Shown here: positions 1 through 18,204 of the stretch, in pieces
Layout of the letters: each line of letters begins with the position of its first letter
Position numbering within the stretch: the first letter of the stretch is position 1
From: Arachnia sp.
GTDB lineage: Bacteria > Actinomycetota > Actinomycetes > Propionibacteriales > Propionibacteriaceae
Direction of reading: 5' to 3'
Assembly: GCA_035326505.1 (NCBI GenBank)
Contig: DAOLFC010000001.1
Coordinates: 5,592 to 69,591 of the forward strand
Length of the DNA: 64,000 nucleotides
The notes under the pieces: model-generated
The model's input: the letters and a program-made list of their open reading frames with translations, nothing else
What the model was told of the DNA's origin: nothing
Databases searched by the model: none
Translations under genes and position numbers: made by a program

Positions 1-72
1 GGCTATGAGGACGCTCGCGCGAACATCCAGGAGCAGGTGGACGCCTGGGCCGCCGAGAACAACCTGAAGTAG
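1..72 (+). CDS. 3' end (23 codons + TAG) of a gene starting upstream of the window; product not assignable
   Basis: Open frame from base 1 (GYEDARANIQEQVDAWAAENNLK*), followed by a GC hairpin at 94-132. Confidence 0.3.
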   Translation, partial: GYEDARANIQEQVDAWAAENNLK

Positions 73-93
73 AGCCCGTAGGCTTCCGACGCG

Positions 94-132
94 GGGCTGT
101 GCGGGCCGGCCGAACGCCGACCCGCACAGCCC
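94..132 (+). terminator. GC-rich hairpin after the upstream gene (putative terminator)
   Basis: 12-bp perfect stem gggctgtgcggg / cccgcacagccc with a 15-nt loop; no clear T-run. Confidence 0.4.
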
Positions 133-166
133 TTCACCACATTCCTTCCCTGATCAGGAGCAGAGC

Positions 167-799
167 GTGCGCAACCTCTTCAACGCGGACTCGCCGCTGA
201 TGCGGTTCCTCAACCGGTTCGCCGACTTCATGCTGATCAACCTGCTCTTCATCGCGACGTCGCTGCCGCTGGTCACCCTCGGCGCCTCCCTCTCGGCGCT
301 CAGCGCCACCGCCATCAAACAGGTTAAGGGCGAGGACGAGAGCCTCTTCGCCGACTACCTCGCCTCGTTCAAGAACAACCTCCGCCAGGGCACCGTCATC
401 GGACTGATCTGCGGCTTCCTCGTCCTCGTGCTCGGCGCCTGGTACATCGTCATCGACAACCTCAACATCAACGAGATCTTCCGTCTCCTGCTCTGGATCG
501 CCTTCTCCTTCGTCGCCTTCCGAGTCGGGATCATGCTGCTGTACGTCTTCCCCTATCAGGGGGTGTTCGACGACAACATTCGCACCGTCTTCCGCAACGC
601 TCGGCTCATGTCGCTGCGGCACCTGCCATCGTCGCTGATGATGGCCATCGTCCTGGGTCTCCCGGTCGTGGTCACGGTCTTCTATCCCCAGGTCATCGGC
701 TACGGCCTGCTCTGGCTGCTGGTCGGCTTCTCGGCGATCGCCTACGCCAACGCCACCTTCTTCGTCCGCATCTTCGCGGCCTACGCCCACGACTTTTAG
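167..799 (+). CDS. DUF624/YesL-family integral membrane protein
   Basis: 210 aa; GTG start 6 nt after CAGGAG; N-terminus MRNLFNADSPLMRFLNRFADFMLINLLF and multiple hydrophobic spans as in YesL-type proteins that accompany sugar ABC systems. Confidence 0.7.
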   Translation: MRNLFNADSPLMRFLNRFADFMLINLLFIATSLPLVTLGASLSALSATAIKQVKGEDESLFADYLASFKNNLRQGTVIGLICGFLVLVLGAWYIVIDNLNINEIFRLLLWIAFSFVAFRVGIMLLYVFPYQGVFDDNIRTVFRNARLMSLRHLPSSLMMAIVLGLPVVVTVFYPQVIGYGLLWLLVGFSAIAYANATFFVRIFAAYAHDF

Positions 800-806
800 G
801 CTCCTC

Positions 807-3197
807 ATGCGCTCCCTTCCTGTGCCCACCTGGTCCTTCCTCCTCGGCGACGAGCCGGACGCGGGGAAGAAGAACGTCGACGATGCGCTCTGGCGGAGCG
901 TCACCGTCCCGCACGACTGGAGCGTCGAGCTGCCCTTCTCTCCCGAGTGCTCCAGCGGCACCGGCTATCTCCCCGGCGGGGTCGGCTGGTACCGGGCCCA
1001 CGTCGACCTCGGCGCGTTGGGCTTGGCCGACGGGCAGCGCCTCCGGCTGGTCTTCCGCGGCGCCTACAAGAACACGGATGTGTGGGTCAACGGCTACCAC
1101 CTGGGGGCGCGGCCGTCCGGCTACGCCGAGTTCTCGTTCGACCTCACCGAGATCGTGTCCTATGCGCCCGACGACGACCTGGTGGTCAGCGTCCGCATCG
1201 AGCACACCGACCTCGCCGACTCGCGGTGGTTCAACGGCACCGGCCTGACCCGTCCCGTCGAGCTCGAGATCCACGACGCCGTGGGCCTCGCCGAGTACGG
1301 CACCACCGTCGTCACCCTCGGCGTCGGCGCCTCGGTGGCGACCGTGCGGATCGCCCAGGTGGTGGAGAACCACTTGGCGGAGTCCGCCGTCGTCACGCTC
1401 CGGCAGGAGCTGCGCGCGCTCACCGGCGGCGCGGTGCATGCGTTCTCCCGAGCCGTCGAGGTTCCCGCCGGCGGAACCCGGGAGGTGGTCTTCGACGAGG
1501 ACGTCGCCTCGCCGCTGTTGTGGTCCGACGACCACCCTCACCTCTACCGGCTCACGACGACGCTGGAGTATCCCGGCGGCGAGAGCGAGTACCGGGAGAC
1601 GATCGGCATCCGCACCGTCGCCTTCGATCCCGATCGCGGATTCCTCGTCAACGGCGAGCCGCGGACCCTCAAAGGGGTGTGCCTGCACGAGGACGCCGGC
1701 TGCCTCGGCGTCGCGGTGCCGGAGGAGGTGTGGCTGCGGCGGCTGCTGGCGCTCAAGAAGATCGGCTGCAACGCCGTCCGGATGGCGCACAACCCGCACA
1801 GCCCCGAGCTGTACGCGCTCTGCGACCGGCTGGGCCTCTTCGTGATCGACGAGGCCTTCGACGAGTGGGAGAACCCGAAGAACAAGTGGTGGCAGGGCCA
1901 CAACGTCTACCCGCCGAAGCACGAGGGCTACGCGAAGGACTTCCCCGTCTGGCACGAGTGCGATCTGGTCAACATGGTGCAGGCGCACAAGAACCACCCG
2001 TCGATCGTCGCCTGGAGCATCGGCAACGAGATCGACTACCCGAACGACCCCTACGCCAGCCCGCTGTTCGCGGAAATGACGGGCAACAACGACGCGAACA
2101 AGCCCGCCGCCGAGCGCGTCTACGACCCGCATCGCCCGGACATCCGCCGGCTGACCACCATCGCCAACCGGCTGATCGACATCGTGAAGAGGGCCGACGA
2201 CACCCGTCCCGTCACGCTGGCCGCGGCCTTCCCCGAGCTCTCCAGCCGGACCGGCCTCCTCGACCGGCTGGACCTCATCGGCTACAACTACAAGGAGCAC
2301 CTGTACGAGGAGCACCACGCGCGGTTCCCGGACCAGCCGCTGCTGGGCAGCGAGAACGGCCACGGCTACCGGCAATGGCGCGCCGTCGCCGACAACGACT
2401 TCATCTCCGGGCAGTTCCTCTGGACGGGCATCGACTACCTCGGCGAGGCGCACGGCTGGCCGATCCACGGCTCCGGTTCCGGCCTGCTCACGGTGGCCGG
2501 CTTCCCGAAGCCGCGCGCTCAGCTGCGCCGCAGCTGGTGGACCGACGAGCCGTTCATTCACGTCGTGACCCGGCCCGGTGCCGTCGAGGCCACGGACCGG
2601 AGCTTCTGGCGGCCCGACTCGTCGCGGGTCTGGGAGCCCGGCGAGCCGGTCGAGGTGCTGTGCTTCACCAACGGCGACGAGGTGCGCCTCACCGCCGCGG
2701 GAAAGGACATCCCGGTGGCCTTCGACGAAGAACTCGGATTCTGGAGGGGGAGGGTTACGCCCGGCGCCGAGCCGCTGCTCGCTGAAGCCCGCCGCGGGGG
2801 CGAGGTGGTCCGCGACCGTCTCGATCCGCGCGGCCCGGCCGTCGGGCTGACCGCGGAGGCCTGGGCGCCGCCCGCGCCGTGGGCGCACCTCGTCGCCTCG
2901 CAGGGGGAGCGGGTGCTCCAGGTGGAGGCGCTGCTGTGCGACGCCGGCGGCAACCCCGCCCGCGACGACGCGGTGGTGACGGCCATCGTCGAGAACGGGA
3001 CGCTGCTCGGGTTGGAGAACGGCGACCTCGCCGACAACACCCCCTACGCGTCGCCGTTCCGACGGACGCTGGACGGCCGCCTGATCGTCTACCTCCGCGG
3101 CGACGAGTCCACCAGGCTGCGCCTCGCCACGGAGGGCGGACTCGAGGCCACCGTCGATTTCGCGAACCGCCGAGGTTGCGCCACGCTGGAGCAATAG
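807..3197 (+). CDS. glycoside hydrolase family 2 (beta-galactosidase/beta-glucuronidase-like)
   Basis: 796 aa; GH2 TIM-barrel region NAVRMAHNPHSPELYALCDRLGLFVIDEAFDEWE and WSIGNEIDY. Confidence 0.85.
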   Translation: MRSLPVPTWSFLLGDEPDAGKKNVDDALWRSVTVPHDWSVELPFSPECSSGTGYLPGGVGWYRAHVDLGALGLADGQRLRLVFRGAYKNTDVWVNGYHLGARPSGYAEFSFDLTEIVSYAPDDDLVVSVRIEHTDLADSRWFNGTGLTRPVELEIHDAVGLAEYGTTVVTLGVGASVATVRIAQVVENHLAESAVVTLRQELRALTGGAVHAFSRAVEVPAGGTREVVFDEDVASPLLWSDDHPHLYRLTTTLEYPGGESEYRETIGIRTVAFDPDRGFLVNGEPRTLKGVCLHEDAGCLGVAVPEEVWLRRLLALKKIGCNAVRMAHNPHSPELYALCDRLGLFVIDEAFDEWENPKNKWWQGHNVYPPKHEGYAKDFPVWHECDLVNMVQAHKNHPSIVAWSIGNEIDYPNDPYASPLFAEMTGNNDANKPAAERVYDPHRPDIRRLTTIANRLIDIVKRADDTRPVTLAAAFPELSSRTGLLDRLDLIGYNYKEHLYEEHHARFPDQPLLGSENGHGYRQWRAVADNDFISGQFLWTGIDYLGEAHGWPIHGSGSGLLTVAGFPKPRAQLRRSWWTDEPFIHVVTRPGAVEATDRSFWRPDSSRVWEPGEPVEVLCFTNGDEVRLTAAGKDIPVAFDEELGFWRGRVTPGAEPLLAEARRGGEVVRDRLDPRGPAVGLTAEAWAPPAPWAHLVASQGERVLQVEALLCDAGGNPARDDAVVTAIVENGTLLGLENGDLADNTPYASPFRRTLDGRLIVYLRGDESTRLRLATEGGLEATVDFANRRGCATLEQ

Positions 3198-3229
3198 CGA
3201 GCTCGATTCGCGCAGGAAGGGGAAACGAT

Positions 3230-4237
3230 ATGGTCACGATGCAGGACGTCGCCCGCCACGCGGGGGTGTCCGTGATGACCGTTTCCAACGTCGTCAACGG
3301 CCACCCGCAGGTGCGCGACAGCACGCGGGCGAAGGTCACGGCGTCGATCGCGGAGCTCGGTTACCTGGTCAACACCACCGCGCGGAGCCTCCGCCAGGGC
3401 CGCACCGGGGTGATCGGCCTGGCGCTGCCGGAGATCGACCGGCCCTACTTCGGCATGCTCAGCGCGCTGCTCATCGCGCGGGCGCGGGAACACGACTACG
3501 AGGTGGTGATCGAGCAGACGGGGTCGCGCCGCGAGAGCGAGATGGACGCCATCCTGCACTCGCGCCTGCGCAGCTACGACGGCCTGCTCCTCCACGCGGC
3601 GCAGCTTCAGCAGGAGGACGCCGCGCTGCTGCGCAGCGACTACCCGATCGTCGTGCTCGGGGAACGCTCCTACTCCTCGCCGGTCGACCACGTGGTCATG
3701 GCGAACGAGGAGGGGGGCGCGCTCGTGGCTCGGCACCTGATCGAGCGCGGCTGCCGCAGGCTCGCCATGGTCGGCGGTCGTCTGTCCTCGCCCGTTGATG
3801 TCGACGTGGCCACGGTGCGCACGAAGGGGTTCGTCTCCGCCGTGCGGGAAGCCGGCCTGCCCCTGACGGATGCCCAGGTCGTGGAGACGCCCTATGAGCT
3901 CGCGGAGTGCCGCGAGGCCGTCGGACGCCTGCTGCGGGAGGTGCCGGACGTCGACGGGATCTTCTGCGCCACCGACTGGGTCGCCTTCGGCGTGCTGCGC
4001 GGGCTCGCCGACGCGGGCAGGCGCGTCCCGCAGGACGTGCGGGTGGTGGGCTTCGACGATGTGCCCCAGGCAGCGTTCACCGTGCCCGCGCTGACCTCGG
4101 TCGCGCCCGATCACGAGGCGATGGCGGATGCCGCCTTGTCCCTGCTCGTCGGCCGGATCTCCGGTCGGCGGACGCGGGACGACTACCAGGCTGTCGTCGG
4201 GAAGACGGTGCTGCGCGAGCGCGAGTCGTCGGCCTGA
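3230..4237 (+). CDS. LacI-family transcriptional regulator (paralogue of 15361..16368)
   Basis: 335 aa from ATG 3230 (track ORF from 2879 is read-through); HTH MVTMQDVARHAGVSVMTVSNVVN plus sugar-binding core. Confidence 0.9.
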   Translation: MVTMQDVARHAGVSVMTVSNVVNGHPQVRDSTRAKVTASIAELGYLVNTTARSLRQGRTGVIGLALPEIDRPYFGMLSALLIARAREHDYEVVIEQTGSRRESEMDAILHSRLRSYDGLLLHAAQLQQEDAALLRSDYPIVVLGERSYSSPVDHVVMANEEGGALVARHLIERGCRRLAMVGGRLSSPVDVDVATVRTKGFVSAVREAGLPLTDAQVVETPYELAECREAVGRLLREVPDVDGIFCATDWVAFGVLRGLADAGRRVPQDVRVVGFDDVPQAAFTVPALTSVAPDHEAMADAALSLLVGRISGRRTRDDYQAVVGKTVLRERESSA

Positions 4238-4295
4238 GCGTTCCCAACCCACCCGCCGACTGCCCGTTCGGCAACATCACCGCAAGGAGCACGCA

Positions 4296-4409
4296 ATGAC
4301 GCACACCCCTCGGTTCTCCACGCTCGGTGGCACCGTCCTCCTCGGCGGGTGTCGCGCGGTGGCCGACACCGTCGCGTTGGCGGCCTGGCCGGAGTCCTCC
4401 TCCCGCTGA
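4296..4409 (+). pseudogene. orphan lipoprotein signal peptide ORF (37 aa), possible remnant of a truncated lipoprotein/SBP gene
   Basis: AAGGAG lies a few nt (about 5) upstream of the ATG; MTHTPRFSTLGGTVLLGGC is a signal peptide plus lipobox, but the frame stops 18 codons after the Cys. Confidence 0.25.
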
Positions 4410-4517
4410 GGCTGGTGGACGGCTCGTCGGGTGCGACTGGGCGGTCTGAGTCCGAAAGTTCAGGTCCATGCTGTCCGAAAGATCGAGTTCAACTTGGCCA
4501 AATGTTAGAGTTCGGGT

Positions 4518-5768
4518 ATGTCTGGATACCGTTCGCGGCTTGTGGACCAGGAGCTCAAGCGGAAGATGCGTGCCATCGGGGCCGTCCTCATCGAGGGGCC
4601 CAAGGCGTGTGGGAAGACGGAGACCGCCAAGCAGGTCGCCAAGACCATCTTCGAGTTCGACAAGGACGAAGTCGCTCGTGGACAGGTCGCGTTGGATCCG
4701 GACTCGCTCTTTGTGGGCGAGCCTCCCATCCTCTTCGATGAGTGGCAGGTGGAACCCAGTATCTGGAATCGCGTCCGTCGCCAGGTCGATGACCGCCATT
4801 CACGGGGTGACTTCATCTTGACAGGGTCGGCGCGCCCGAGAGATGACGTTGCCCGTCATTCAGGGGCAGGCCGTATTGGCGTTGTCCAGATGCGGCCCAT
4901 GAGCCTGTTTGAGTCCGGACACTCCGACGGTGCGGTCTCCTTCGCGGCCCTGCTTGAGGGAAAGAGGCAGACGGGCCTCGGGTCACACTTGAGCTTTGAT
5001 GAGCTCCTTCGGCGAATCGTCATCGGTGGCTGGCCAGAGATCATTGACTACGACGAACCGGAGGCACGCGACTGGCTGGCCGGCTACCTCGACCAGGTCG
5101 TCGAGATCGACATTCCGTCGATGGGGCATCGCCGGAATCCGCGAAACCTCCGGCGGCTGTTCACGTCGCTGGCGCGCAACGTCGGACAGCCCGCGAAGCT
5201 CACAGAGCTGGCCAAGGATGTGGGCGGTGAAGCCGGAGCGATTGCTCACGAAACGATCACCGGTTACCTCGACACGGTGCAGCGGCTCCGTCTGACGGAG
5301 AACGCGGCGTCGTGGCGACCTCACATGCGGTCGGCGACACCGTTGCGCACGGCCGAGGTTCGCTACTTTGTCGATCCGTCGCTCGGTCCAGCGGCACTCG
5401 GCGTTGGCAGTGCTGAACTGCGCGCGGATCCGCGGGCCACGGGGTTCCACTTCGAGGCTCTCGTCGTCCGTGACCTGCGGATTTTCGCTCAGCCGCATCG
5501 CGGTGTCGTCGAGTCCTGGCGTGACAAGAATGGCAACGAAGTCGACGCGATCGTCACGATCAATGACAACAAGTGGGCTGCGTTCGAGATCAAGCTCAAC
5601 CCTCGCGATGTGGATGCGGCGGCTGCCGCTCTCCTGCGATTCTCGGCCAATGTGGACACGGGCAGGCACGGAGAGCCTGCGGCGCTGGCGGTGATCACGG
5701 GATCTGGCGTCGCTGGCCGTCGTGAGGATGGCGTCCATGTCATCCCGATCGGATGCCTCGGCCCGTAG
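4518..5768 (+). CDS. AAA-family ATPase with DUF4143-like C-terminal domain (COG1373 type)
   Basis: 416 aa; Walker A GPKACGKT, Walker B-like PILFDEWQ, C-terminal D...E.K pattern (EVDAIVTINDNKWAAFEIK); visibly lower GC than its flanks. Confidence 0.8.
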   Translation: MSGYRSRLVDQELKRKMRAIGAVLIEGPKACGKTETAKQVAKTIFEFDKDEVARGQVALDPDSLFVGEPPILFDEWQVEPSIWNRVRRQVDDRHSRGDFILTGSARPRDDVARHSGAGRIGVVQMRPMSLFESGHSDGAVSFAALLEGKRQTGLGSHLSFDELLRRIVIGGWPEIIDYDEPEARDWLAGYLDQVVEIDIPSMGHRRNPRNLRRLFTSLARNVGQPAKLTELAKDVGGEAGAIAHETITGYLDTVQRLRLTENAASWRPHMRSATPLRTAEVRYFVDPSLGPAALGVGSAELRADPRATGFHFEALVVRDLRIFAQPHRGVVESWRDKNGNEVDAIVTINDNKWAAFEIKLNPRDVDAAAAALLRFSANVDTGRHGEPAALAVITGSGVAGRREDGVHVIPIGCLGP

Positions 5769-5865
5769 GGAAGGTCAACCGTGCCAGTCGGCGGTTGGAG
5801 TCAGGGGCGCGGGGCGGGATCGTCGGGTGCGACTCGTTCTCGGCGAAGCGTTTGTCCCGGGCGAT

Positions 5866-5898
5866 GTCAGGATGCCGCTGGTATGCGTCAGGATGCCG
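5866..5898 (+). promoter_or_regulatory. two 12-bp direct repeats GTCAGGATGCCG (5866-5877, 5887-5898), candidate operator for the HTH of the downstream gene
   Basis: Exact 12/12 repeat, 21 bp start-to-start, about 50-90 bp upstream of the mntA-like start. Confidence 0.35.
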
Positions 5899-5945
5899 GT
5901 TGCGTGCGCCTCGGTCTCGACGGCTCGTGCCTGACCTTATCGACG

Positions 5946-5951
5946 TATAAT
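5946..5951 (+). promoter_or_regulatory. -10 box TATAAT giving a leaderless or near-leaderless transcript for the mntA-like gene
   Basis: Perfect TATAAT ends 6 nt before ATG 5958; no Shine-Dalgarno sequence between. Confidence 0.45.
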
Positions 5952-5957
5952 GCCCGT

Positions 5958-6410
5958 ATGGGTGACGTGCGGGAGATGCGCAGGAGTGCAGGTCTCAGTC
6001 AGAGCGAGTTGGGGCGAAGGACCGGCATCGCGGTGCCGAACCTGTCGGCCTACGAGACGGGTCGTCGACAGCCGTCGGCGGAGACGCTGGCGCGGATCGC
6101 CGACGCCTGTCGGCGGAGGCCCTCGGAGGTGCTGGAGCGGGACCGCGCGCGGATCGTGGCGATCCTGGCCGAGTGCGGCGTCACCGCTTGGGCCTTCGGC
6201 TCCGTGGCGCGCGGTGAGGATCGTTGGGACTCGGACCTCGATCTCCTCGTGGACCTTCCTGACGACTTCGGTTACCTCCGGCTGGCGCGGCTGAAGCGGC
6301 GGCTCGACGAGCTGGGCATCGAGGTCGACCTGGTGCCCCGGGGGGCGCTCGATCCGACGGCGACATCTGGGATCGACCATCGGATCCTGTCCGAGGCGGT
6401 GCCGCTGTGA
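5958..6410 (+). CDS. mntA: HTH(XRE)-fused minimal nucleotidyltransferase, MntA-like antitoxin (type VII TA)
   Basis: 150 aa from ATG 5958; HTH RRSAGLSQSELGRRTGIAVPNLSAYETGRRQPS; NTase motif FGSVARGEDRWDSDLDLLVD. Confidence 0.75.
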   Translation: MGDVREMRRSAGLSQSELGRRTGIAVPNLSAYETGRRQPSAETLARIADACRRRPSEVLERDRARIVAILAECGVTAWAFGSVARGEDRWDSDLDLLVDLPDDFGYLRLARLKRRLDELGIEVDLVPRGALDPTATSGIDHRILSEAVPL

Positions 6411-6778
6411 CGGGAAGGGAGGACCTCGCCGCGCGATACGGGGCGGAGGTCGTCGGTCACCTGGACTTTCTCGTGGCAACGCTGGGCGAGTTGGAGGACA
6501 TCGCCGCGCGCGGCAGGGATGCCTATCTGGGCGACGTCGTGCTGCAGCGCGCCGTCGAGGGGTGCGCGAACAGGATCGGCGACACGATCAAGGCGAAGGT
6601 CCCCGTCGAGCTGCAGGACGAGCTGGGTGGCAGGGAGATGTGGTCGGACTGGGTGGACTGGCGGGTGTTCCTCGTCCACATCTACCACCGGGTCGACCTG
6701 ACCCAGGTCTGGCGGGACCTCGAACGCGACGTGCCCGAGTTCCGCAGGCGCCTGGTCGCCGCGCTGGGTGCGGATTAG
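6407..6778 (+). CDS. hepT: HepT-like HEPN (DUF86) ribonuclease toxin
   Basis: 123 aa; GTG 6407 overlaps the upstream stop (GTGA); Rx4H motif RVFLVH near the C-terminus. Confidence 0.75.
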   Translation: MTGREDLAARYGAEVVGHLDFLVATLGELEDIAARGRDAYLGDVVLQRAVEGCANRIGDTIKAKVPVELQDELGGREMWSDWVDWRVFLVHIYHRVDLTQVWRDLERDVPEFRRRLVAALGAD

Positions 6779-7272
6779 CGCAAGCCGTTCTTGTTGGCCG
6801 TTGGGGCTGGCCGGCGCACGCAGGACGACTATGGGGGAGGTCGTCGGCCGGGTTGCGCTGCGTGAGTGCGAATCCTCAGCGGGATAGCGCCTCGTCATGG
6901 TCGCCTGAAGACGTTGACGAGAGCTGATCGAAGGGGTAAAGTCAACACAAGTTTGTAACGATAAATTACTGAGTGGCCGAATCATCTCGTCAACGGCGAT
7001 AGATGTAACCGGGGCACGGAGCGGGCCGCCGCGGGGCGTTGGGCGGAGGCTCCTTTCCCGGTGGCGTCGCGTCGGTTCGACGAGTTCGGCCCAGAGAGGG
7101 AGCAATGACTTTCGACGCGCTGAATCGCGGCGCGCTGTGGCGCAGCGACGAAGAGACAGTGCCGGCCCCGCTCACCTCCGTCCCCGTCGTCACGCGTACG
7201 CCGGAGGCACTCGCTCTGCTGTCCGACCTCGCCGATACCCTCTGAACCGGATCAACTCCTAGAAGGAACATC

Positions 7273-8739
7273 GTGACCACTATCCGTACCGACGCACATC
7301 GTCACACCCTGGACCGGCGCATCTACGGCCAGTTCGCCGAGCATCTCGGCCGGGGCATCTACGAGGGCCTCTGGGTCGGCCCCGACTCCGAGATTCCCAA
7401 CCGCAACGGCCTGCGCATCGACGCCATCGACGCGCTGCGCGTCCTCAAGGTCCCCGTCGTCCGGTGGCCGGGGGGATGCTTCGCCGACGAATACCACTGG
7501 CTCAAGGGCGTCGGCCAGGACCGTTCCCCCATGGTGAACACGCACTGGGGCGGCGTCGTGGACCCCAACGAGTTCGGCACCCACGAGTTCTTCGAGCTCC
7601 TCGACCAGCTGGGCGCCGAGGCCTACGTCAACGGCAACGTGGGCAGCGGCACCGTGGCGGAGATGCAGGACTGGGTGGAGTACATGACCCTGGAGTCGGG
7701 TTCGGCCATGGCGGATCTGCGCCGTCGCCACGGCCACGAGCAGGCGTGGAAGGTGCCTTTCTTCGGAGTAGGCAACGAGTCCTGGGGCTGTGGCGGCAAC
7801 ATGCAGCCCGGCTACTACGCCGACCTGTATCGCCAGTTCCAGACCTACGTGCGCAACTACGGCGACAACCGGATCACCAAGGTGGCCTGCGGCGCCAACG
7901 CCGACGACTACACCTGGACCGAGGTGGTGATGCGCGAGGCGACGCCGTACATGGACGCGCTGAGCCTGCACTACTACACGCTGCCCACGGGCAAGTGGGC
8001 CGGCAAGGGCGCGGCGCTGGGCTTCGCCGAGGGGGCGTGGGACGAGACCATCCGGCGCACGCGCTACATGGACACCCTGCTGACCCGGCACGGCGAGATC
8101 ATGGACCGCTACGATCCCGCCAAGCGGGTGGGGCTCTACGTCGACGAATGGGGCACCTGGTACGACGTCGAGCAGGGCACGAACCCCGGCTTCCTGTTCC
8201 AGCAGAACACCATGCGCGACGCGATCGTGGCGGCGGTGAACTTCCACATCTTCCACCGCCACGGCGACCGCGTGCGCATGACGAACATCGCGCAGATGGT
8301 CAACGTGCTGCAGGCGATGCTGCTGACCGACGGGCCGAAGCTGATCACCACGCCCACCTATCACGCCTACGCGCTCTACACCGATCATCACGACGCCACC
8401 TTCGTCGACATCGGCGGGATCGACGGCGTCGCGGGTTCCGTGGCGCCGCATGTGGACGCGACCGTGTCGTACAAGGACGGCGCCTACACCATCAGCGTCG
8501 TGCATGAGGGCCTGGACCACGAGGCCGAGCTGTCCTTCGAGCTGCCGCAGGCGATCACCGAGGTGCTGCGCAGTGAGATCCTCACCTCGGCGGCACCCAA
8601 CAGCCACAACACCTTCGACGCGCCCGACGAGGTGGCCGCGGCGCCGTTCGGCGAGGTTCGCGTCGACGGCCGTACCGTCTCGTTCACGCTGCCTCCGCGG
8701 AGCATCGTGACGGTGCGGGTCGGCCAGCCGGCGGACTGA
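7273..8739 (+). CDS. abfA: alpha-L-arabinofuranosidase, GH51
   Basis: 488 aa; GTG after GAAGGA; [48 protein letters not shown]. Confidence 0.9.
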
Positions 8740-8764
8740 TCGTCGCCGTCGCACCGCCAACGCG

Positions 8765-8814
8765 CTTAGCCGTTCGCTCTTCCACCGACTTCGGTGGAAG
8801 AGCGAACTCCTAGC
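8765..8814. repeat. 50-nt palindromic intergenic repeat, family 1, copy A
   Basis: cttagccgttcgctcttccaccgacttcggtggaagagcgaactcctagc; near-identical copies at 18128-18177 and 44262-44311. Confidence 0.75.
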
Positions 8815-8849
8815 CCGACCCGGTTCGCCGCAGCCGGTGCCTCGTCGAT

Positions 8850-8896
8850 CAGTGCTTCCCTAAAGCAGTGCTTCCTAGAACAGTGCTTCCCTAGAA
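8850..8896 (+). repeat. triple tandem direct repeat CAGTGCTTCC(C)TA(A/G)A(A/G) overlapping the promoter of the DUF2264 gene
   Basis: cagtgcttccctaaag / cagtgcttcctagaa / cagtgcttccctagaa back to back; the third unit runs into TAGAAT (8892-8897), 30 nt before ATG 8928. Confidence 0.8.
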
Positions 8897-8927
8897 TCAT
8901 CGCAACGCCGACCGCGAGGAGCAGCCG

Positions 8928-10808
8928 ATGCCCACCGTTCCCACCGACCCCACCCCCGACGCCGCAACCGGACGGGAGGAGCTGCGCGATCTCGCGCGTC
9001 GGCTGCTGCGGCGCGCCCTCGACTTCGGGTCGCCCGGGCACGCTCGCATCGACCTCCCCGGAACCGACAGCGCCTACGGCAGCGACGTCGGCGGGCTCGA
9101 GGGCTTCGCGCGCACCTTCGTCCTGGCTGCGGCGCTCGTCGCGGGCGACCGCGGGCACGACCCGGACGGCTTCCTCGCGTGGTACGGGGAGGGGCTCGCC
9201 GCGGGCACCGACCCCGCGTCGGACGAGCGCTGGGTGAGCATGCGCGACCACAGCCAGCCGAAGGTCGAGGCCGCCTCGCTGGCGGTGGGCCTCCATCTGA
9301 CCAGGCCCTGGCTGTGGGACCGGATGGACGACGCGGTGCGCGGCCGGGTCATGGCCTATCTGGAGGAGTGGATCGGCAGCGAGTACCCGCCGTGCAACTG
9401 GGTGTGGTTCCGGATCCTCACCGAACAGTTCCTGCTGAACGCCGGGTCGGCCCGGGCGGCCGAGATCGAACGCGACCTCGACCTGGACCTCGACTACGTC
9501 GAGTCCCTGTACCGCGCCGACGGCTGGTACTCCGACGGGGCAGGGCGTCATTTCGACCACTATGCGGGCTGGGTGATGCAGGTCTATCCGACGCTGTGGC
9601 TGCTCATGGCGGGCGACTCGCCCCGAGCGGCGCGATGGGCCCCGCTGTTCCGCGAGCGCCTTTCGCGCTACCTGGAAGATGCCGTCCACCTGGTGGGAGC
9701 GGACGGGGCGCCGCTGTTCCAGGGGCGCAGCCTGATCTACCGCTTCGCCGCCGCGGCCCCGCTGTGGGCGGGCGTGCTCGCGGGATGCGGCGAGGCGGGG
9801 CAGCTCCGGGAGGGCGCGCGCCGGATCGTCGCGCACTTCCTGGACCACGGCGCGGTGACCGACGACGACCGCCTCACCCTCGGATGGTTCGGGCCCTGGC
9901 CGGCCATGGCGCAGCACTACTCGGGACCCGGATCGGTCTACTGGGCGTCGAAGGGGCTGCTCGGGCTCGCCCTGCCCGAGGACTCCCCGGCCTGGCAGGC
10001 CCCCGCCGTCGCCCTGCCCATCGATGGCGCCGACAGCATCCGGGCGATCGAGAGCCCCGGCTGGATCGTCTCCGGCACCGCGCGCGACGGCATCGTCCGG
10101 GTGTTCAACCTGGGAACCGATCACGCGGCGGCCGGTGAGTTCCGCAGCGACGACCCCCTGTATGCGCGGGTCGGCTACTCCACGGCGACGGCCCCGGTGC
10201 TGGCGCCCCCGGACGCCGGGCCGGTGGACAACGCCATCGTGCTCCTCGATGAGAACGGCCTCCCCTCGCACCGCACCGGCTTCGAGGACTTCCGCGTCGC
10301 GGTGGACGACGGCACGGGGATCGGGGCCTGGACCGGAGAGGCCCACTGGCCGGCCTCGGGGGAGCGGGTCTCGATCGACGCCGTCGTGATCGTCCGGGGG
10401 AGCCAGGAGCTGCGCCTGGTGCGCGCCGCAGCGCCCCGTCGGGCCGCCATCCTCGGATGGCCGGTGACCGCCGACGCTCCGCCGTCGGAGTTGCTCGGCG
10501 ACGGGAGCGTCGCCGTCGCTTCCCTGCGGCTCCGCTCGACCCTCGCCTCCCTCGGCGACGCCTTGGCGAACGCCCGGGTCTCCCGGTACGCCGACGCGAC
10601 GCCCCTCGGTTCCTGCACCGCGGTGCCGGAGCTGCTCTCCGACGGCGAGCTGACGCCGGGGCGCTGGTGGGGTGCTCACGTCGAGCTCGCGGGCGCGGAC
10701 GTCGCGCCGTCGGTTCCTCCCCATGCGGAGCTGAGCGGCTCGCGGCTCCGGATCGGCTGGCGCGACGGGGTGGACCAGGAGATCGACCTGGACGAGATCG
10801 TCGCCTAG
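8928..10808 (+). CDS. DUF2264 domain-containing protein (possible glycoside hydrolase)
   Basis: 626 aa; GAGGAG RBS; family-typical segments YGSDVGGLEGFARTF and PPCNWVWFRIL. Confidence 0.7.
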   Translation: MPTVPTDPTPDAATGREELRDLARRLLRRALDFGSPGHARIDLPGTDSAYGSDVGGLEGFARTFVLAAALVAGDRGHDPDGFLAWYGEGLAAGTDPASDERWVSMRDHSQPKVEAASLAVGLHLTRPWLWDRMDDAVRGRVMAYLEEWIGSEYPPCNWVWFRILTEQFLLNAGSARAAEIERDLDLDLDYVESLYRADGWYSDGAGRHFDHYAGWVMQVYPTLWLLMAGDSPRAARWAPLFRERLSRYLEDAVHLVGADGAPLFQGRSLIYRFAAAAPLWAGVLAGCGEAGQLREGARRIVAHFLDHGAVTDDDRLTLGWFGPWPAMAQHYSGPGSVYWASKGLLGLALPEDSPAWQAPAVALPIDGADSIRAIESPGWIVSGTARDGIVRVFNLGTDHAAAGEFRSDDPLYARVGYSTATAPVLAPPDAGPVDNAIVLLDENGLPSHRTGFEDFRVAVDDGTGIGAWTGEAHWPASGERVSIDAVVIVRGSQELRLVRAAAPRRAAILGWPVTADAPPSELLGDGSVAVASLRLRSTLASLGDALANARVSRYADATPLGSCTAVPELLSDGELTPGRWWGAHVELAGADVAPSVPPHAELSGSRLRIGWRDGVDQEIDLDEIVA

Positions 10809-10938
10809 GTCGCAGGGTGTGAGGGGTGGCAGCCGCGGTGTGCGGCGCCACTCCTGGCGCTCGTTCACCGTGTCCTGGGGTGGGAGCGGGCCGTTCTCCG
10901 CAGCTTCCAGATTGTTATTGATTCGTTACGAAAACGCT

Positions 10939-10981
10939 TTGCATCCAGGGCTTGTATCGTTATATTGTCCTTGTATCGTTA
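10939..10981 (+). promoter_or_regulatory. candidate promoter (-35 TTGCAT, 16-nt spacer, -10 TATATT) with two direct copies of CTTGTATCGTTA (LacI-type half-operators)
   Basis: TTGCAT 10939-10944; TATATT 10961-10966; repeats at 10951-10962 and 10970-10981, in an AT-rich patch upstream of SBP gene 11157. Confidence 0.4.
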
Positions 10982-11156
10982 GAAAGCAGGGTCGCTTCGG
11001 GAGATTCAGAGGAGAACCGGGCAAGGGTCCAGGGGGACCATCAAGGCATCCGTCGTCGGAGGCTGCCGCATCAGCGGCGCCTTTCCGGGCAGCTGCTCGC
11101 TCATCCGGTTCTCGTCTCTCTCTGAGGGTCCCACCATCAGTGAGGAGAACATAACG

Positions 11157-12500
11157 ATGACTTACCCGCGTGGTGTGAAGAGGACCGCGGCCGGTGCCGC
11201 GGGCCTGTCCGTGGCCGTTCTGCTGACGGCCTGCTCCAACGCCGCCCCCGATGCACCCGGTGAAACCGGAACGGCTGGCGACGAGAAGATCACCGTCCAG
11301 CTCGCCCACTGGGGCGGCGACTGGAACGAGAACGAGGTGTACAAGCCTCGCATCGAGGCCTTCATGGCCGAGCATCCCAACATCATCGTCGAGCCTCTGC
11401 CGGTCGCGGAGGAGTACGAGACCAAGATGACCACTCTCATCAACGCCGGCCAGGCGCCCACCCTGATGCAGGTGGCGGAGAACGGGACCCGGTGGGCGGG
11501 GGCGTTCCGCGACCTCACCACCCAGATCGAGGCCGAGGGCTGGGACCTGGCGGAGCGCTTCGGCGGCGCCGCCGAGCTCTACAACGATGGCAACATCCAG
11601 TTCGCGGTGCCGGACCGTGGCGGCTCCACCGTCCTCTACTTCAACAAGGACCTGTTCGAGGAGGCCGGCCTCCCGCTGCCCGACGAGAACTTCACCGTCG
11701 ACGACTACTACAACGCCCTGGAGAAGATCACCGCCCTCAGCGGCACGATCGACGTGGACGGCGACGGCCAGGGCGATCCCATCTGGGGCGGCACCGGCAC
11801 CCACTACCAGGCGGCCTGGGGCGCGTTCCTGCTGGGCAACGGCGGCAGCATCATCGAGTTCGACGCCGAGGGCGAGCCCGTCGTCACGGTCAACAGCCCG
11901 CAGAACGCGGAGGTCTTCGATCGCTGGGTCGGCGCCTATGCCAACGACTGGATCCTGCCCTACGAGAACACCGTGGAGAAGGGCGGCGACGCCTGGTTCC
12001 AGAGCGGCAACGTGGGCATGAACATGACGGGCTTCTGGGTTGTCAAGGGCTACGCCGAGACCGAGGGCCTCAACTGGGACATGTCGACCATCCCGCTCGG
12101 CGAGGTCGAGTCCGGCTGGCCGATGGGCTCCGGCTTCGCGATTTCCGCGCAGGCCTCGGACGAGGAGGCCGCCGCCGCGTGGGAGGTCGCCAAGTACCTC
12201 TCCGGCGATGAGGGTCAGGCCTACCTGGCGGAGACCCTCGCCGATGCCCCCGCGAGCCTCGAGGCCCTGACCAACCTGCAGTACGAGACCGTCGACGGCA
12301 ACCCCGTCAGCGTGGACCGCTTCGCGATCGTGCAGCAGCGCCTCACCACGATCGACGGCTACGTCCGCGGCCCGTGGTACTCCGAGGTGAACAACGAGTC
12401 GCGCACCCAGGTGCGCAACGCCGTCGAGGGTGCCATCACGGTGCCCGAACTCCTCGAGAACCTCGAGGAGAACCTGACCAAGATCGTCGCCCGTTACTGA
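11157..12500 (+). CDS. sugar ABC transporter substrate-binding lipoprotein
   Basis: 447 aa; GAGGAG RBS; signal plus lipobox AVLLTAC; family-1 solute-binding features. Confidence 0.85.
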   Translation: MTYPRGVKRTAAGAAGLSVAVLLTACSNAAPDAPGETGTAGDEKITVQLAHWGGDWNENEVYKPRIEAFMAEHPNIIVEPLPVAEEYETKMTTLINAGQAPTLMQVAENGTRWAGAFRDLTTQIEAEGWDLAERFGGAAELYNDGNIQFAVPDRGGSTVLYFNKDLFEEAGLPLPDENFTVDDYYNALEKITALSGTIDVDGDGQGDPIWGGTGTHYQAAWGAFLLGNGGSIIEFDAEGEPVVTVNSPQNAEVFDRWVGAYANDWILPYENTVEKGGDAWFQSGNVGMNMTGFWVVKGYAETEGLNWDMSTIPLGEVESGWPMGSGFAISAQASDEEAAAAWEVAKYLSGDEGQAYLAETLADAPASLEALTNLQYETVDGNPVSVDRFAIVQQRLTTIDGYVRGPWYSEVNNESRTQVRNAVEGAITVPELLENLEENLTKIVARY

Positions 12501-15224: not shown

Positions 15225-15360
15225 CGCCCGTTCGCCCGCTCGATCTTGGGGGTGCGTGCCAAGATATGGGTGTCCTGGACTGCGTGCGCGGTGTCGTCGC
15301 AGGTGCCCCCGTGAGCGGCGCGTTCTCGGGGTCTCGGATCCATAAGGAGGAGGGAAGCGC

Positions 15361-16368
15361 ATGGTCACCATGCAGGATGTCGCCCGTCATGCGGGCGTGT
15401 CGGTCATGACCGTCTCCAACGTGGTCAACGATCACCCGCATGTGAGGAAGACCACCAGGGAGAAGGTGGTGGCGTCCATCGAGGAGCTCGGATACCGGGT
15501 GAACACGACGGCCCGTAGCCTCCGGCAGGGGCGAACCGGCGTCATCGGGCTCGCGTTGCCGGAGATCGACCGGCCCTACTTCGGCCTGCTGAGCGCGCTG
15601 CTCATCGAACGGGCCAGGCAATACGACTACGACATCGTGGTCGAGCAGACCGGGGCGCGCCGCGAGAACGAGATGGACGCCATCCTGCACTCCCGGTTGC
15701 GCAGCTACGACGGCCTGCTCCTGCACGCCTCGCAGCTCGCGCAGGAGGATGCGGCGCTCCTGCGCGGCGACTTCCCCATCGTGGTGCTGGGCGAGCGCGC
15801 CTATTCCGCTCCGGTCGATCACGTCGTCATGGACAACGAGCAGGGGGCGACCCTCGCCGCCCGGCACCTCATCGATCGGGGGTGTACGAGGATCGCGATG
15901 ATCGGCGGGCGCCCGTGGTCCCCCGGCGACGTCGATGTCGCCACCATGCGCACCAAGGGCTTCGTCGCCGAGATCGAGGCGGCGGGCCTTGAGCTGGGGC
16001 CGGGGCAGGTCCAGCCAACCCGCTACAACCTGGCCGACTCGCGGGATGCGGTGGGTCGCCTGCTGAAGGAGGTCGGCGCCGTCGACGGCATCTTCTGCGC
16101 CACCGACTGGGTGGCGTTCGGGGTGCTGCGCGGGCTGGCCGACGCCGGTCTGCGCGTGCCCGAGGATGTGCGCATCGTCGGGTTCGACGACGTCCCGCAG
16201 GCCGCGTTCTCGACGCCCTCGCTCAGCTCGATCGCGCCCGATCACGAAGCCATGGCGGACGCGGCCCTGAAGCTGCTCGTCGGGCGGATCGCCGGGGAGC
16301 GGCCCAGGGACGACTTCCGAGAGGTGTTCGGCGCCGTGAGACTCATCCCCCGCGAGTCGTCCGCGTAA
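15361..16368 (+). CDS. LacI-family transcriptional regulator (paralogue of 3230..4237)
   Basis: 335 aa; AGGAGG RBS; shares the N-terminal 23 residues and long internal runs with 3230..4237. Confidence 0.9.
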   Translation: MVTMQDVARHAGVSVMTVSNVVNDHPHVRKTTREKVVASIEELGYRVNTTARSLRQGRTGVIGLALPEIDRPYFGLLSALLIERARQYDYDIVVEQTGARRENEMDAILHSRLRSYDGLLLHASQLAQEDAALLRGDFPIVVLGERAYSAPVDHVVMDNEQGATLAARHLIDRGCTRIAMIGGRPWSPGDVDVATMRTKGFVAEIEAAGLELGPGQVQPTRYNLADSRDAVGRLLKEVGAVDGIFCATDWVAFGVLRGLADAGLRVPEDVRIVGFDDVPQAAFSTPSLSSIAPDHEAMADAALKLLVGRIAGERPRDDFREVFGAVRLIPRESSA

Positions 16369-17377: not shown

Positions 17378-18052
17378 CTATCCAGAAGCGCGGGAAATCG
17401 AGTCGGTCGCGGCCCATCTGGCGAGGCGGGCGATGAGGGCGCGGTGGACATCCGAGTCGTAGGAGCGCGCGTCGTGGCCGAGGAGGTCGACGGCGATCCG
17501 GGACGCACCGTACTCCCGCACCCACACCGTCGGTTCCGGTCCGTCGGGGCCCTCGTGCTGCGCGACGACGCGGTTGCGCCCGATGCCCTGGATGCTGCAG
17601 TAGCGCTCGTCGAACACCTCGAAGGGTTCAGGGAGCAGATCCCCGGCGTCAGGCGCGGGGACGATGGTGGCGGCGTCGGCCGGTGGATGCCAGGACAGGC
17701 CGGGGACCCACATTCCGCCCACGGCGGCGGCCCAGTCGGGGTAATCGCGCAGTGAGGAGACGGCGCAGTGCTGGGCCAGCACGGCCATGCCGCGGTCGAA
17801 CGCGGCCGTGAGTCCGGCGATGCCCGGTGCGTCGCGGGGGAGCTTGGTCGGGGAGTCGCGCCAGGGGTCTCCGGCGTTGACGACGAGCAGGTCGATCCCG
17901 TCGAGCCGGGTCATCGCACCGTCGACGTCATCGTCGATCTCGACGGCGAAGCCGGCCTCCCGGAGGATCTCCGCCAAGCGCTCACTGGTCTCGGTGAACG
18001 GGTGCCACGGGTCGGCGTACCTGCTGGAGCCACTGACGATCATCGCGCGCAT
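17378..18052 (-). CDS. ThuA-domain protein (trehalose-utilisation-like)
   Basis: 224 aa; MRAMIVSGSSRYADPWHPF... layout typical of ThuA-like proteins. Confidence 0.65.
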   Translation of the reverse strand: MRAMIVSGSSRYADPWHPFTETSERLAEILREAGFAVEIDDDVDGAMTRLDGIDLLVVNAGDPWRDSPTKLPRDAPGIAGLTAAFDRGMAVLAQHCAVSSLRDYPDWAAAVGGMWVPGLSWHPPADAATIVPAPDAGDLLPEPFEVFDERYCSIQGIGRNRVVAQHEGPDGPEPTVWVREYGASRIAVDLLGHDARSYDSDVHRALIARLARWAATDSISRASG

Positions 18053-18127
18053 GACTCGACGCTACCCAATCGCGGAGCCCACACCCACCACGCGCCGGAT
18101 GGCACGGCGCAATCCCTCACGTCGCGG

Positions 18128-18177
18128 CTTAGGAGTTCGTTCTTCCACCGACTTCGGTGGAACAGCGAACTCCTAAG
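18128..18177. repeat. 50-nt palindromic intergenic repeat, family 1, copy B
   Basis: cttaggagttcgttcttccaccgacttcggtggaacagcgaactcctaag, in the divergent region between thuA-like and the GH27 gene. Confidence 0.75.
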
Positions 18178-18204
18178 CGGAGGTCGGCTTCCCTGGGACG
18201 GGGC

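Follow-up and report, generated by a model that had tools for sequence, protein, structure and literature searches.

In an Arachnia sp. genome, a 2.9-kb stretch of DNA that has no carbohydrate function lies between two clusters of genes for sugar utilisation, and its presence there raises the question of whether its genes arrived as a unit and work as one. The window, the whole stretch of DNA analysed here, comprises 64,000 nucleotides; coordinates refer to it, and all of the features given lie on its plus strand. The interval is bounded by a LacI gene (3230-4237) and a GH51 gene (7273-8739), both recognised by Pfam, and includes genes for an AAA ATPase (4518-5768), a nucleotidyltransferase fused to a helix-turn-helix domain (HTH-MNT, 5958-6410) and a HepT/HEPN protein (6407-6778). 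A preliminary description had named these genes and flanks, and the lack of any carbohydrate function between them, correctly. It had also proposed that the three genes form a single insertion of lower GC content, a candidate defence and addiction island, and here the data lead elsewhere. The interval is, with good probability, a composite of two unrelated accessory modules acquired independently at a synteny breakpoint. Both modules are of known kinds and their adjacency is coincidental. Since the ATPase and the toxin-antitoxin (TA) pair reached the locus independently and nothing indicates that they cooperate, the region is instructive but ordinary.

A stand-alone ATPase-nuclease gene

The ATPase gene encodes a protein of 416 aa that includes an AAA_14 P-loop domain, a helical middle part, which is probably a winged helix, and a C-terminal PD-(D/E)xK domain, as judged from Pfam, PADLOC, AlphaFold2 and Foldseek. 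Pfam places AAA_14 at residues 22-132 (E 1e-11) and DUF4143 at residues 198-360 (E 9e-30). The Walker A motif GPKACGKT occupies residues 27-34, Walker B is provided by D74-E75, and the tail reads EVDAIV...AAFEIK. In an alignment of homologues, K33, D74, E75, E313, D343, E357 and K359 are invariant or nearly so. Pfam and this alignment thus agree with the earlier assignment of an AAA ATPase with a D...E.K tail.

The model of the C-terminal domain (AlphaFold2, pLDDT 84) comprises, in domain numbering, a helix (21-43), three strands (46-51, 57-64 and 68-75), a second helix (78-93) and a further strand (105-110). This is the alpha-beta-beta-beta-alpha-beta core of the PD-(D/E)xK superfamily, in which the aspartate lies on strand 2 and the (D/E)xK motif on strand 3; D343 opens strand 2, and strand 3 carries E357-x-K359. 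The best Foldseek matches, R.BspD6I, McrC, Card1, Can1/Can2, Hjc and NucS, superpose on the domain with probabilities of 0.94-1.00 and weak E-values of 6e-3 to 7e-2. The model, these matches and the conserved D343, E357 and K359 bear out the suspected nuclease-like nature of the tail. For DUF4143 in general this is not new: it was already listed as PD-(D/E)XK (Steczkiewicz et al. 2012, PMC3424549).

Identity between the window ATPase and L087 is 0.87, 0.92 and 0.50 at codon positions 1, 2 and 3, a pattern which, at the level of sequence comparison, demonstrates strong purifying selection. An ATP-dependent nuclease that binds DNA is the most likely identity of the protein, which may be directed at foreign DNA and serve by itself in a restriction-like or defence function; alternatively, the gene may be a selfish one.

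The gene is accompanied by its own promoter region (4446-4517; blastn and an alignment of 10 loci), which carries phased iterons and a -10 box. The iteron core TCCGAAA is found at 4451 and 4474, with a degenerate copy around 4494-4503, and nowhere else in the window. The -10 box TAGAGT (4506-4511) lies only 6 nt upstream of the ATG, which suggests that the transcript is leaderless. Across the 10 aligned loci the promoters share 3-4 repeated TATCCGAAAnnTCA units and an invariant TAG.GT-N6-ATG; we know of no earlier description of such a conserved iteron-bearing promoter for PDC-S01, the PADLOC family to which this ATPase belongs. In blastn comparisons, homology with ATPase loci of unrelated contexts begins at 4446-4478, and nucleotide homology among ATPase loci is confined to the gene itself, as far as its stop codon, and to the 70 nt or so that precede its start codon. 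The module would thus comprise one gene and measure about 1.4-1.5 kb, being made up of the leaderless iteron promoter and the AAA_14 ATPase/PD-(D/E)xK nuclease.

Relation to PDC-S01 and to other nucleases

The PADLOC search that had been recommended identified the ATPase as PDC-S01, one of the candidate phage-defence families already on record: model PDLC04790 matches with E 7.2e-58 and 194 bits (residues 1-378 against positions 8-384 of a profile of 422), and three more PDC-S01 models also match. To our knowledge, no PDC-S01 member has a demonstrated function. One publication presents the family as a fusion of an ATPase with a PD-(D/E)-X-K member and ranks it as the fourth most common "defence" of prokaryotes (PMC12988326). 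The window protein is organised in the same way, as a single-gene unit with AAA_14 followed by DUF4143, the latter with the PD-(D/E)xK fold and motif. Its surroundings are different. The genes from which the PDC families were defined lay within BREX, DISARM or type I restriction-modification (RM) systems, whereas this gene and its close homologues have housekeeping or sugar genes as neighbours; over the 12 kb inspected (1-12000), no RM, BREX or DISARM gene accompanies the ATPase. The 115 genes neighbouring 51 ATPase-homologue loci give isolated PADLOC hits only and are mostly housekeeping genes, which weakens guilt by association in this clade. In the single test that we found, representatives of PDC-S01 and PDC-S09, the latter being the type of the HTH-MNT (see below), gave no protection of E. 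coli B against T4, T5 and T7 (bioRxiv 10.1101/2024.09.26.614923), and an anti-phage role of these types is therefore unproven.

The joining of an AAA+-type NTPase to a PD-(D/E)xK nuclease recalls McrB and McrC. In contrast to McrBC, Card1 and Can1/Can2, the window ATPase is a single polypeptide and has neither a GTPase-type McrB domain nor a CARF sensor, and sequence similarity to these nucleases is not detectable. The parallel is an analogy of mechanism only and not one of membership.

The MNT/HEPN toxin-antitoxin pair

The second module is a two-gene operon. HTH-MntA (150 aa) most likely begins at the ATG at 5958, in agreement with the identical 150-aa NCBI model P0241. It combines an XRE-type HTH (Pfam HTH_3) with a minimal nucleotidyltransferase (NTP_transf_2, 38.2 bits for a cut-off of 21), and is matched by PADLOC PDC-S09 (E 2e-17) and, in structural databases, by PDB 1wot (E 1.7e-10) and HI0073. 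The HTH-NTP_transf_2 fusion is present in all 120 matches listed of the 1876 P0241 homologues. The hepT gene shares its first 4 nt (GTGA) with the end of mntA, including the mntA stop codon, and encodes a HEPN/DUF86 protein of 123 aa, a candidate RNase toxin (Pfam HepT-like, 31.6 bits for a cut-off of 23.5).

Class I HepT/MntA systems (type VII) are defined by a GSX10DXD motif in the MNT and an RX4HXY motif in the HEPN protein (PMC7641770). The window MntA carries G81-S82, ten further residues and D93-L-D95, and HepT carries R86-VFLV-H91-I-Y93, of which R86, H91 and Y93 are invariant when the protein is aligned with the HepT proteins encoded beside three HTH-MNT homologues (four sequences in all). 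The gene layout is also that of Class I, namely adjacent PF01909 and PF01934 (or PF08780) genes with the MNT upstream, and the window pair, of PF01909 and PF01934, resembles the HepT/MntA system described in 2020 (PMC7641770) in its overlapping HEPN gene and in both motifs, including the acceptor tyrosine. The earlier identification of an XRE-HTH-MNT fusion and an Rx4H HEPN protein is therefore sound by Pfam and alignment, and that of a type VII module by the published motif definition. The pair differs from HepT/MntA in the N-terminal XRE-type HTH of MntA, which is common to its closest homologues (mostly Actinobacteria) and is not mentioned in the HepT/MntA publications checked. The scores of the NCBIfam equivalogs lie below their cut-off of 60 (NF047752 MntA, 32.1 bits; NF047751 HepT, 18.5 bits), marking the pair as a divergent HepT/MntA subfamily.

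HepT is predicted to act as an Rx4H RNase, and the GSX10DXD site of MntA would AMPylate HepT at Tyr93, beside the RNase motif, and so keep it inactive. The operon promoter (5899-5957, conserved with the relative L160) includes a -35-like GTTGCGTGCGC and a -10 box, TATAAT (5946-5951). The spacing of 6 nt between the latter and the ATG at 5958 points to a leaderless transcript here, too. The XRE-HTH of MntA most likely auto-represses this promoter.

Base composition, repeats and relatives

The two modules differ in composition. The other 43 called genes of the window have a mean GC3 of 0.930 (sd 0.042). The value for the ATPase, 0.748 (z = -4.3), lies below that of every one of them; HTH-MNT has 0.848 (z = -1.9) and HEPN a host-like 0.911 (z = -0.4). 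In sliding windows, GC is 0.60-0.66 in the ATPase part as against 0.68-0.75 in the flanks, and 0.68-0.71 in the MNT/HEPN part, near the window mean of 0.696. The lower GC attributed to the entire block is thus real for the ATPase part but not for the TA pair. The AT-richer stretches that were taken for the edges of the block do exist, at 4410-4517 (GC 0.574) and 6885-7104 (GC 0.60), but the left one is the ATPase's own promoter and the right one probably belongs to the GH51 operon (see below).

Flanking direct repeats, said to be missing, are present. A perfect 15-nt repeat, TCGTCGGGTGCGACT, is found at 4424-4438, within an imperfect 29-nt repeat (4410-4438), and again at 5820-5834, 52 nt past the ATPase stop codon. 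These are its only exact copies in the 64 kb and they bracket the ATPase alone; none of 200 shuffles yielded a flanking repeat as long as 15 nt. Among 30 other ATPase loci tested, only L085 has an analogue. As the preliminary description had noted, there is no integrase or transposase nearby. Where the ATPase segment meets the MNT promoter there is a 21-nt tandem duplication (GTCAGGATGCCG..., 5866-5907). L160, homology with which resumes at about 5899, lacks this duplication, which is probably a junction scar.

In the related contig L160 the gene order is GH2, LacI, a GH50-like gene and HTH-MNT, with no ATPase (the contig, of 4.3x coverage, ends inside the MNT gene, and the GH50-like gene is split). 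From about 5899 its MNT promoter and coding sequence match the window, and upstream the GH50-like gene stands in place of the ATPase. The 37-codon ORF at 4296-4409 of the window is a 5' relic of such a gene: tblastn aligns 34 aa of it with the beginning of L160 g360 at 47% identity, and the DNA alignment with L160 runs from the ribosome-binding site of the relic to about 4393 and then breaks. Both L160 g360 (E 6e-15) and L160 g207 (E 7e-10) match the GH50 beta-agarase 4bq2. The GC3 of the relic, 0.895, is host-like. This homology rules out the orphan lipoprotein gene previously seen in the ORF, but an insertion had indeed destroyed a resident gene, a GH50-like glycosidase.

In L155, L159 and L160, nucleotide homology with the window extends to about 4187-4240, and the sequence downstream of LacI is different in each. 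LacI directly abuts abfA in none of the three, and none has the ATPase at this position. The sister genome L155 holds a degraded ATPase paralogue.

A further insertion scar lies beyond the TA pair. The intact 3' end of LacI (4163-4237; repeat search and homology with L155, L159 and L160) is the first copy of a diverged duplication, the second of which is a decayed, frameshifted relic that follows the HEPN gene and runs through the stop codon (6809-6884; repeat search and local alignment). The final ~75 nt of LacI (4163-4233) recur at 6809-6881, with similarity possibly starting at about 6790. The alignment scores 28, about 8.7 sd above the mean of shuffled sequences (mean 13.3, sd 1.7, maximum 22). 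Read by hand with correction of a 1-nt frameshift, the relic translates as GRRTQDDY/GEVVGRVALRECESSAG up to its stop codon, for GRRTRDDYQAVVGKTVLRERESSA and stop in LacI.

One island or two modules

The proposal of a single horizontally acquired island, in which the ATPase-nuclease would be sensor or effector and MNT/HEPN a co-functioning addiction or abortive-infection module, has some points in its favour. The three genes are neighbours with a common orientation, all three families are catalogued by PADLOC as defence candidates (PDC-S01, PDC-S09 and, weakly, PDC-M05A), GC3 of both the ATPase and the MNT lies below the window mean, and in one study a PDC-M05 representative, a nucleotidyltransferase with a HEPN protein, protected E. 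coli (bioRxiv 10.1101/2024.09.26.614923). Co-occurrence, the lack of which the proposal had itself named as evidence against it, is not found. At 51 metagenomic loci of ATPase homologues (46-85% identity), tblastn gave no match to the window MNT/HEPN, and NTP_transf_2 and HepT-like are absent from the multi-member Pfam families of the 115 neighbouring ORFs; three annotated ATPase contigs (L161-L163), with housekeeping contexts, have no MNT/HEPN either, giving 0 of 54 loci in all. Conversely, HepT lies directly downstream in 3 of 3 complete HTH-MNT homologue loci (L156-L158), and AAA_14/DUF4143 occurs within 5 kb in none of the three. Any functional coupling that co-occurrence could detect is thus not supported, and this largely refutes the proposal. 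Nor does the interval look like a genomic island integrated as one unit, which would have a single set of boundaries, a foreign composition throughout and genes that relatives either share or lack together: its boundaries are nested and separate, GC3 is heterogeneous, with only the ATPase compositionally foreign and HEPN host-like, the 15-nt repeats enclose the ATPase alone, and L160 has the MNT at this locus without the ATPase. A spacer of 190 nt separates the two units, each of which has its own conserved and apparently leaderless promoter. We consider a single island the least credible of the readings weighed here. The opposite view, that all genes from the GH50-like one to HEPN are original to the locus and no insertion took place, with the low GC of the ATPase reflecting relaxed selection or a gene-specific bias and the repeats arising by chance, is scarcely more credible. 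It would accommodate the MNT of L160 and the host-like GC3 of HEPN, but it is already contradicted for the ATPase, which is missing at this position from all three relatives and has the lowest GC3 of the window despite purifying selection; the GH50-like stump, the 15-nt repeat and the LacI relic are likewise not attributable to chance.

A third reading, improbable but deserving more weight than these two, is that the ATPase gene has no part in defence and is a selfish, self-regulated, mobile single-gene element. Cleavage of target DNA, homing-like or cassette-like, would fall to its PD-(D/E)xK domain, its AAA+/winged-helix part would bind the iterons of its own promoter, and the 15-nt direct repeat would be a recombination or target-duplication site. 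The promoter-to-stop unit does occur in many unrelated, mostly housekeeping contexts, even for copies that are 84% identical, and is accompanied by its phased iterons; significant flanking repeats are found in the window and L085, the L155 paralogue is degraded, homologues are present on 212 plasmid records, and no integrase or transposase is nearby. However, 29 of 31 loci (the window and 30 homologue loci) have no flanking repeat above chance, the geometry of the window repeat is unlike that of L085, and the protein has no transposase-like or recombinase-like domain. Strong purifying selection is compatible with any function, and repeated horizontal transfer together with selection for a defence gene could equally give this pattern.

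In the two-module reading, which we prefer, the TA module would be the older, already in place downstream of the GH50-like gene when the lineage of the L160 organism branched off. The more recent arrival of the ATPase unit would then have replaced the GH50-like gene, leaving the 37-codon stump, the 15-nt flanking repeat and the 21-nt tandem scar.

Sequence before GH51

Just upstream of GH51 and outside both modules, a 46-aa ORF (7105-7245), which is among the genes predicted for the source contig, has no Pfam hit and, in the fetched loci, no tblastn hit other than its source-contig copies. The AT-richer intergenic region that precedes it (6885-7104), taken previously for the right edge of an island, is probably native and the promoter region of the GH51 operon; its sole sigma-70-like site lies at 6914-6942.

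Organisation and composition of the block between LacI and GH51

The window is a high-GC actinobacterial segment (69.6% GC) in which genes for DUF624 (167-799), GH2 (807-3197) and LacI (3230-4237) proteins are separated from those for GH51 (7273-8739), DUF2264 (8928-10808) and sugar-binding (11157-12500) proteins. The intervening block includes a 37-aa ORF (4296-4409), an AAA_14/DUF4143 ATPase gene (4518-5768), an HTH-MNT gene (5958-6410) and a gene for a HepT-like HEPN protein (6407-6778). The three genes of the preliminary description, together with their motifs, are all real. The lower GC content attributed there to the entire block holds for the ATPase but not for the MNT/HEPN part: sliding-window values are 0.60-0.66 and 0.68-0.71 respectively, against 0.68-0.75 in the flanks. 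GC3 follows the same gradient. The ATPase has a value of 0.748 (z = -4.3 relative to the 43 other called genes of the window, all of which have higher values), HTH-MNT one of 0.848 (z = -1.9) and HEPN one of 0.911 (z = -0.4).

No intrinsic terminators were found, nor any Rfam match within 3000-9000. Gene calling on the source contig includes a 46-aa ORF (7105-7245; MTFDALNRGALWRSDEETVPAPLTSVPVVTRTPEALALLSDLADTL; GC3 0.81) directly upstream of GH51. Lacking any family match, it may be a spurious call or may encode a leader peptide.

Related loci indicate a composite block

Three related loci (L155, L159 and L160) were reached via LacI homologues. A further LacI homologue (P0122, 81% identity) is from a Tessaracoccus MAG. 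A second LacI paralogue, 77% identical at the protein level, lies 11 kb downstream at 15346-16368 in the same sugar-utilisation region and complicates the assignment of orthologues in relatives. L155, from another Arachnia MAG, and L159 have the DUF624-GH2-LacI order in common with the window and each diverges directly after LacI, into MFS, GH42 and GH43 genes in the former and LuxR and subtilase genes in the latter. A clean LacI-abfA junction was found in none of the three relatives. From the GH51 side, the closest matches listed (68-72% identical) retain too little synteny to reveal an empty site.

Among the relatives, L160 is a contig of 4.7 kb in a sister assembly, with 86% (GH2) and 79% (LacI) nucleotide identity to the window. 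Its gene order is GH2, LacI, a 360-aa ORF, a 207-aa ORF and the beginning of an HTH-MNT gene with 78% identity to window positions 5988-6281; the ATPase is absent. The two ORFs match separate parts of the chain of the beta-agarase 4bq2 (E 6e-15 and 7e-10) and are pieces of one GH50-like glycosidase. The 37-aa ORF of the window can be aligned to this gene over its ribosome-binding site and initial ~33 codons, as far as about 4393. This alignment and the GH50 matches rule out the lipoprotein ORF that had been proposed at this position. Homology resumes at about 5899, within the MNT promoter, where a -35-like GTTG..TGCGC and a CGTATAATG box are conserved, the TATAAT lying 6 nt ahead of the ATG.

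The break near 4393, the resumption near 5899 and the lack of the ATPase in L160 mean that, in the lineage of the window, an ATPase-bearing segment (about 4394-5898) replaced the GH50-like gene when the TA operon was already present, an order which agrees with the composition gradient. The position of the GH50-like gene is thus occupied in L160 and replaced, with identifiable scars, in the window, and the two loci provide a clean natural before/after pair for acquisition of this type of ATPase gene. Rather than the single three-gene insertion originally envisaged, the block comprises two modules whose acquisitions fell at separate times, both at a variable junction of the sugar-utilisation region. 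In L160 itself, the GH50-like gene (2653-4355) is split into two ORFs, apparently lacks ~140 C-terminal residues and ends exactly where the MNT promoter begins. This shortening reflects either insertion of the TA pair or an assembly error in the contig, the coverage of which is low (4.3x).

A perfect 15-nt direct repeat, TCGTCGGGTGCGACT, at 4424-4438 and 5820-5834 encloses the ATPase gene and no other; it is contained within a 29-nt imperfect repeat. These are the only two exact copies of the 15-nt repeat in 64 kb and no repeat of this length arose in 200 shuffles. The right junction also carries a 21-nt tandem duplication (5866-5907). In one homologous locus, L085, a perfect 14-nt direct repeat (113-126 and 1570-1583) flanks the ATPase gene and was likewise not equalled in length in 200 shuffles. 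Significant flanking repeats were observed in only these 2 of the 31 loci tested; a general rule for ATPase units was thus rejected, L085 being the single positive among the 30 loci other than the window. The two loci differ in the geometry of their repeats, which may stem from target duplication, a recombination site or microhomology.

At the right boundary, a decayed and frameshifted copy of the LacI 3′ end (the last ~25 codons through the stop) lies at 6809-6881, directly after the HEPN stop codon, with an alignment score of 28 compared to 13.3 ± 1.7 in shuffles. Over 6809-6884, a count by hand gives 17 of 24 residues shared with the window's own LacI, its closest match. The relic is evidence that an event involving a LacI 3′ end once bounded the block on its right, and points to an older rearrangement or duplication at this junction. 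It could derive from duplication at insertion or from loss of a second LacI.

An HTH-fused HepT/MntA pair

By the definition of Yao et al. 2020 (PMC7641770), Class I HepT/MntA systems pair a PF01909 gene with an adjacent PF01934/PF08780 gene and carry the motifs GSX10DXD and RX4HXY. Both motifs are present here: G81-S82...D93-x-D95 in MNT, whose domain matches PDB 1wot and HI0073, and R86, H91 and Y93 in HEPN, invariant in all four aligned HepT proteins. A PDB sequence search with HEPN returned nothing useful. Judged by these motifs, the pair is an HTH-fused Class I HepT/MntA, a known kind of accessory module. NCBIfam equivalog scores for MntA and HepT fall below the cut-off and indicate a divergent subfamily. 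The N-terminal XRE-HTH fusion, which is unmentioned in the HepT/MntA literature examined, occurs in all 120 homologues listed among 1876 matches, those with names being mostly actinobacterial. HTH-fused MntA proteins form a subfamily common in Actinobacteria, a putative variant of type VII antitoxins. MntA is likely to AMPylate Y93 and so silence the HepT RNase, while its HTH domain likely represses the operon promoter; the fusion would probably couple AMPylation with transcriptional autoregulation.

The ATPase is a PDC-S01 family member

With PADLOC, the ATPase matches PDC-S01 (E 7e-58), making it an additional member of this candidate family and, like the TA pair, a known kind of accessory module. 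PDC families were proposed as candidates on the grounds that BREX, DISARM or type I RM loci harbour their members (bioRxiv 10.1101/2024.01.29.577857). PDC-S01 is presented in the literature as a fusion of an ATPase with a PD-(D/E)-X-K domain and is ranked there as the fourth commonest prokaryotic "defence", without experimental validation (PMC12988326). In one test, four candidates conferred protection on E. coli B against T4, T5 or T7, and neither PDC-S01 nor PDC-S09 was one of them (bioRxiv 10.1101/2024.09.26.614923). DUF4143/COG1373 had been catalogued as PD-(D/E)XK as early as 2012 (PMC3424549).

The nuclease-like character suggested for the C-terminal tail is supported by modelling. Models of the full-length protein (pLDDT 78) and of residues 285-416 alone (pLDDT 84) both contain an alpha-beta-beta-beta-alpha-beta core, in which strand 2 bears D343 and strand 3 bears E357-x-K359. 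Foldseek searches with the whole protein gave mostly weak AAA+ matches. With the separately modelled residues 285-416, the best matches were R.BspD6I, McrC, Card1, Cdn1, Can1/Can2, Hjc, NucS and EcoRV, with probabilities up to 1.00 and TM scores of ~0.5-0.58 but weak E-values. A PDB sequence search with the ATPase returned nothing useful. Across 57 homologues, the Walker A and Walker B motifs and residues E313, D343, E357 and K359 show little or no variation, and identities of 0.87/0.92/0.50 at codon positions 1/2/3, in comparison with an 84%-identical homologue, indicate purifying selection.

Homologues occur on 212 plasmid records. Carriage by phage was rejected: the only eight matches are to unannotated faecal "Bacteriophage sp." contigs, which provide no evidence for it. 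One homologous metagenomic locus (L110) carries two diverged AAA_14/DUF4143 genes in tandem (658-1905 and 2057-3322), the second being 31% identical to the window protein.

An iteron-bearing promoter travels with the ATPase gene

Between ATPase loci in unrelated contexts, nucleotide homology extends from 40-70 nt upstream of the ATG to the stop codon. Alignment of the window with nine other loci (L084, L085, L087-L089, L092, L093, L095 and L101) identified three to four iterons (~TATCCGAAAnnTCA) with a spacing of ~23 nt in the upstream stretch (4446-4517), the last abutting an invariant TAG.GT box 6 nt ahead of the ATG. This is the usual spacing for leaderless actinobacterial transcripts, from which we infer that the ATPase transcript is leaderless. 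The iteron region accompanies the gene into unrelated genomic contexts and its core motif has no further occurrence in the window. Together, these features suggest that ATPase expression is regulated, possibly autoregulated, and the iterons may be an operator array serving this purpose.

The discrete promoter-to-stop unit, the perfect 15-bp direct repeat of the window and the lack of any recombinase in sight also raise the idea that the PDC-S01 gene is an autonomous, self-regulated single-gene mobile element, instead of or besides an immune gene. In this view, the AAA+/winged-helix part of the ATPase might itself bind the iterons, by analogy with Orc1/Cdc6. We consider this reading quite improbable; if true, one of the most abundant prokaryotic "defence candidates" would represent a novel type of selfish nuclease gene. 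What residual novelty the locus holds lies in this putatively mobile, iteron-bearing single-gene unit, of which the iteron promoter is the most interesting loose end, offering a concrete handle on the role and control of a very abundant, uncharacterised ATPase-nuclease family.

The ATPase and MNT/HEPN genes do not co-occur in the homologue loci examined

The preliminary description had proposed that the ATPase acts with the MNT/HEPN pair, and had itself counted lack of co-occurrence against this idea. A metagenome scan with the ATPase as query yielded 71 loci, with identities of 46-85% for 51. In none of these 51, with flanks of up to 8 kb, did the window MNT or HEPN give a tblastn match. Among 115 flanking ORFs (at most two per side of each ATPase), NTP_transf_2 and HepT-like domains are absent from the multi-member Pfam families; the listing covers 25 families, so that an isolated match in a further single-member family is possible. 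These neighbours include glutamine synthetase, epimerases, phosphoesterases, a few PIN domains, one transposase and one relaxase, and give only isolated PADLOC matches. Two annotated contigs (those of homologues P0003 and P0017) agree in lacking MNT/HEPN; in Tessaracoccus, the ATPase gene lies between glnA and an MMPL gene. Reciprocally, in each of three long contigs with an HTH-MNT homologue, a HepT gene follows directly and no AAA_14/DUF4143 gene lies within 5 kb. Since no co-occurrence was found, joint action is unsupported. One related contig and ~55 homologue loci sufficed to separate the modules, a reminder that defence-flavoured genes can lie side by side in a genome without forming a system.

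Elsewhere in L155, a degraded and broken AAA_14 ATPase relic (17737-18679, minus strand; 43% identity over 200 aa) adjoins a PemK-toxin TA pair (18684-19221) inside another glycoside-hydrolase region, a second instance of an ATPase and a TA pair adjacent among sugar genes.
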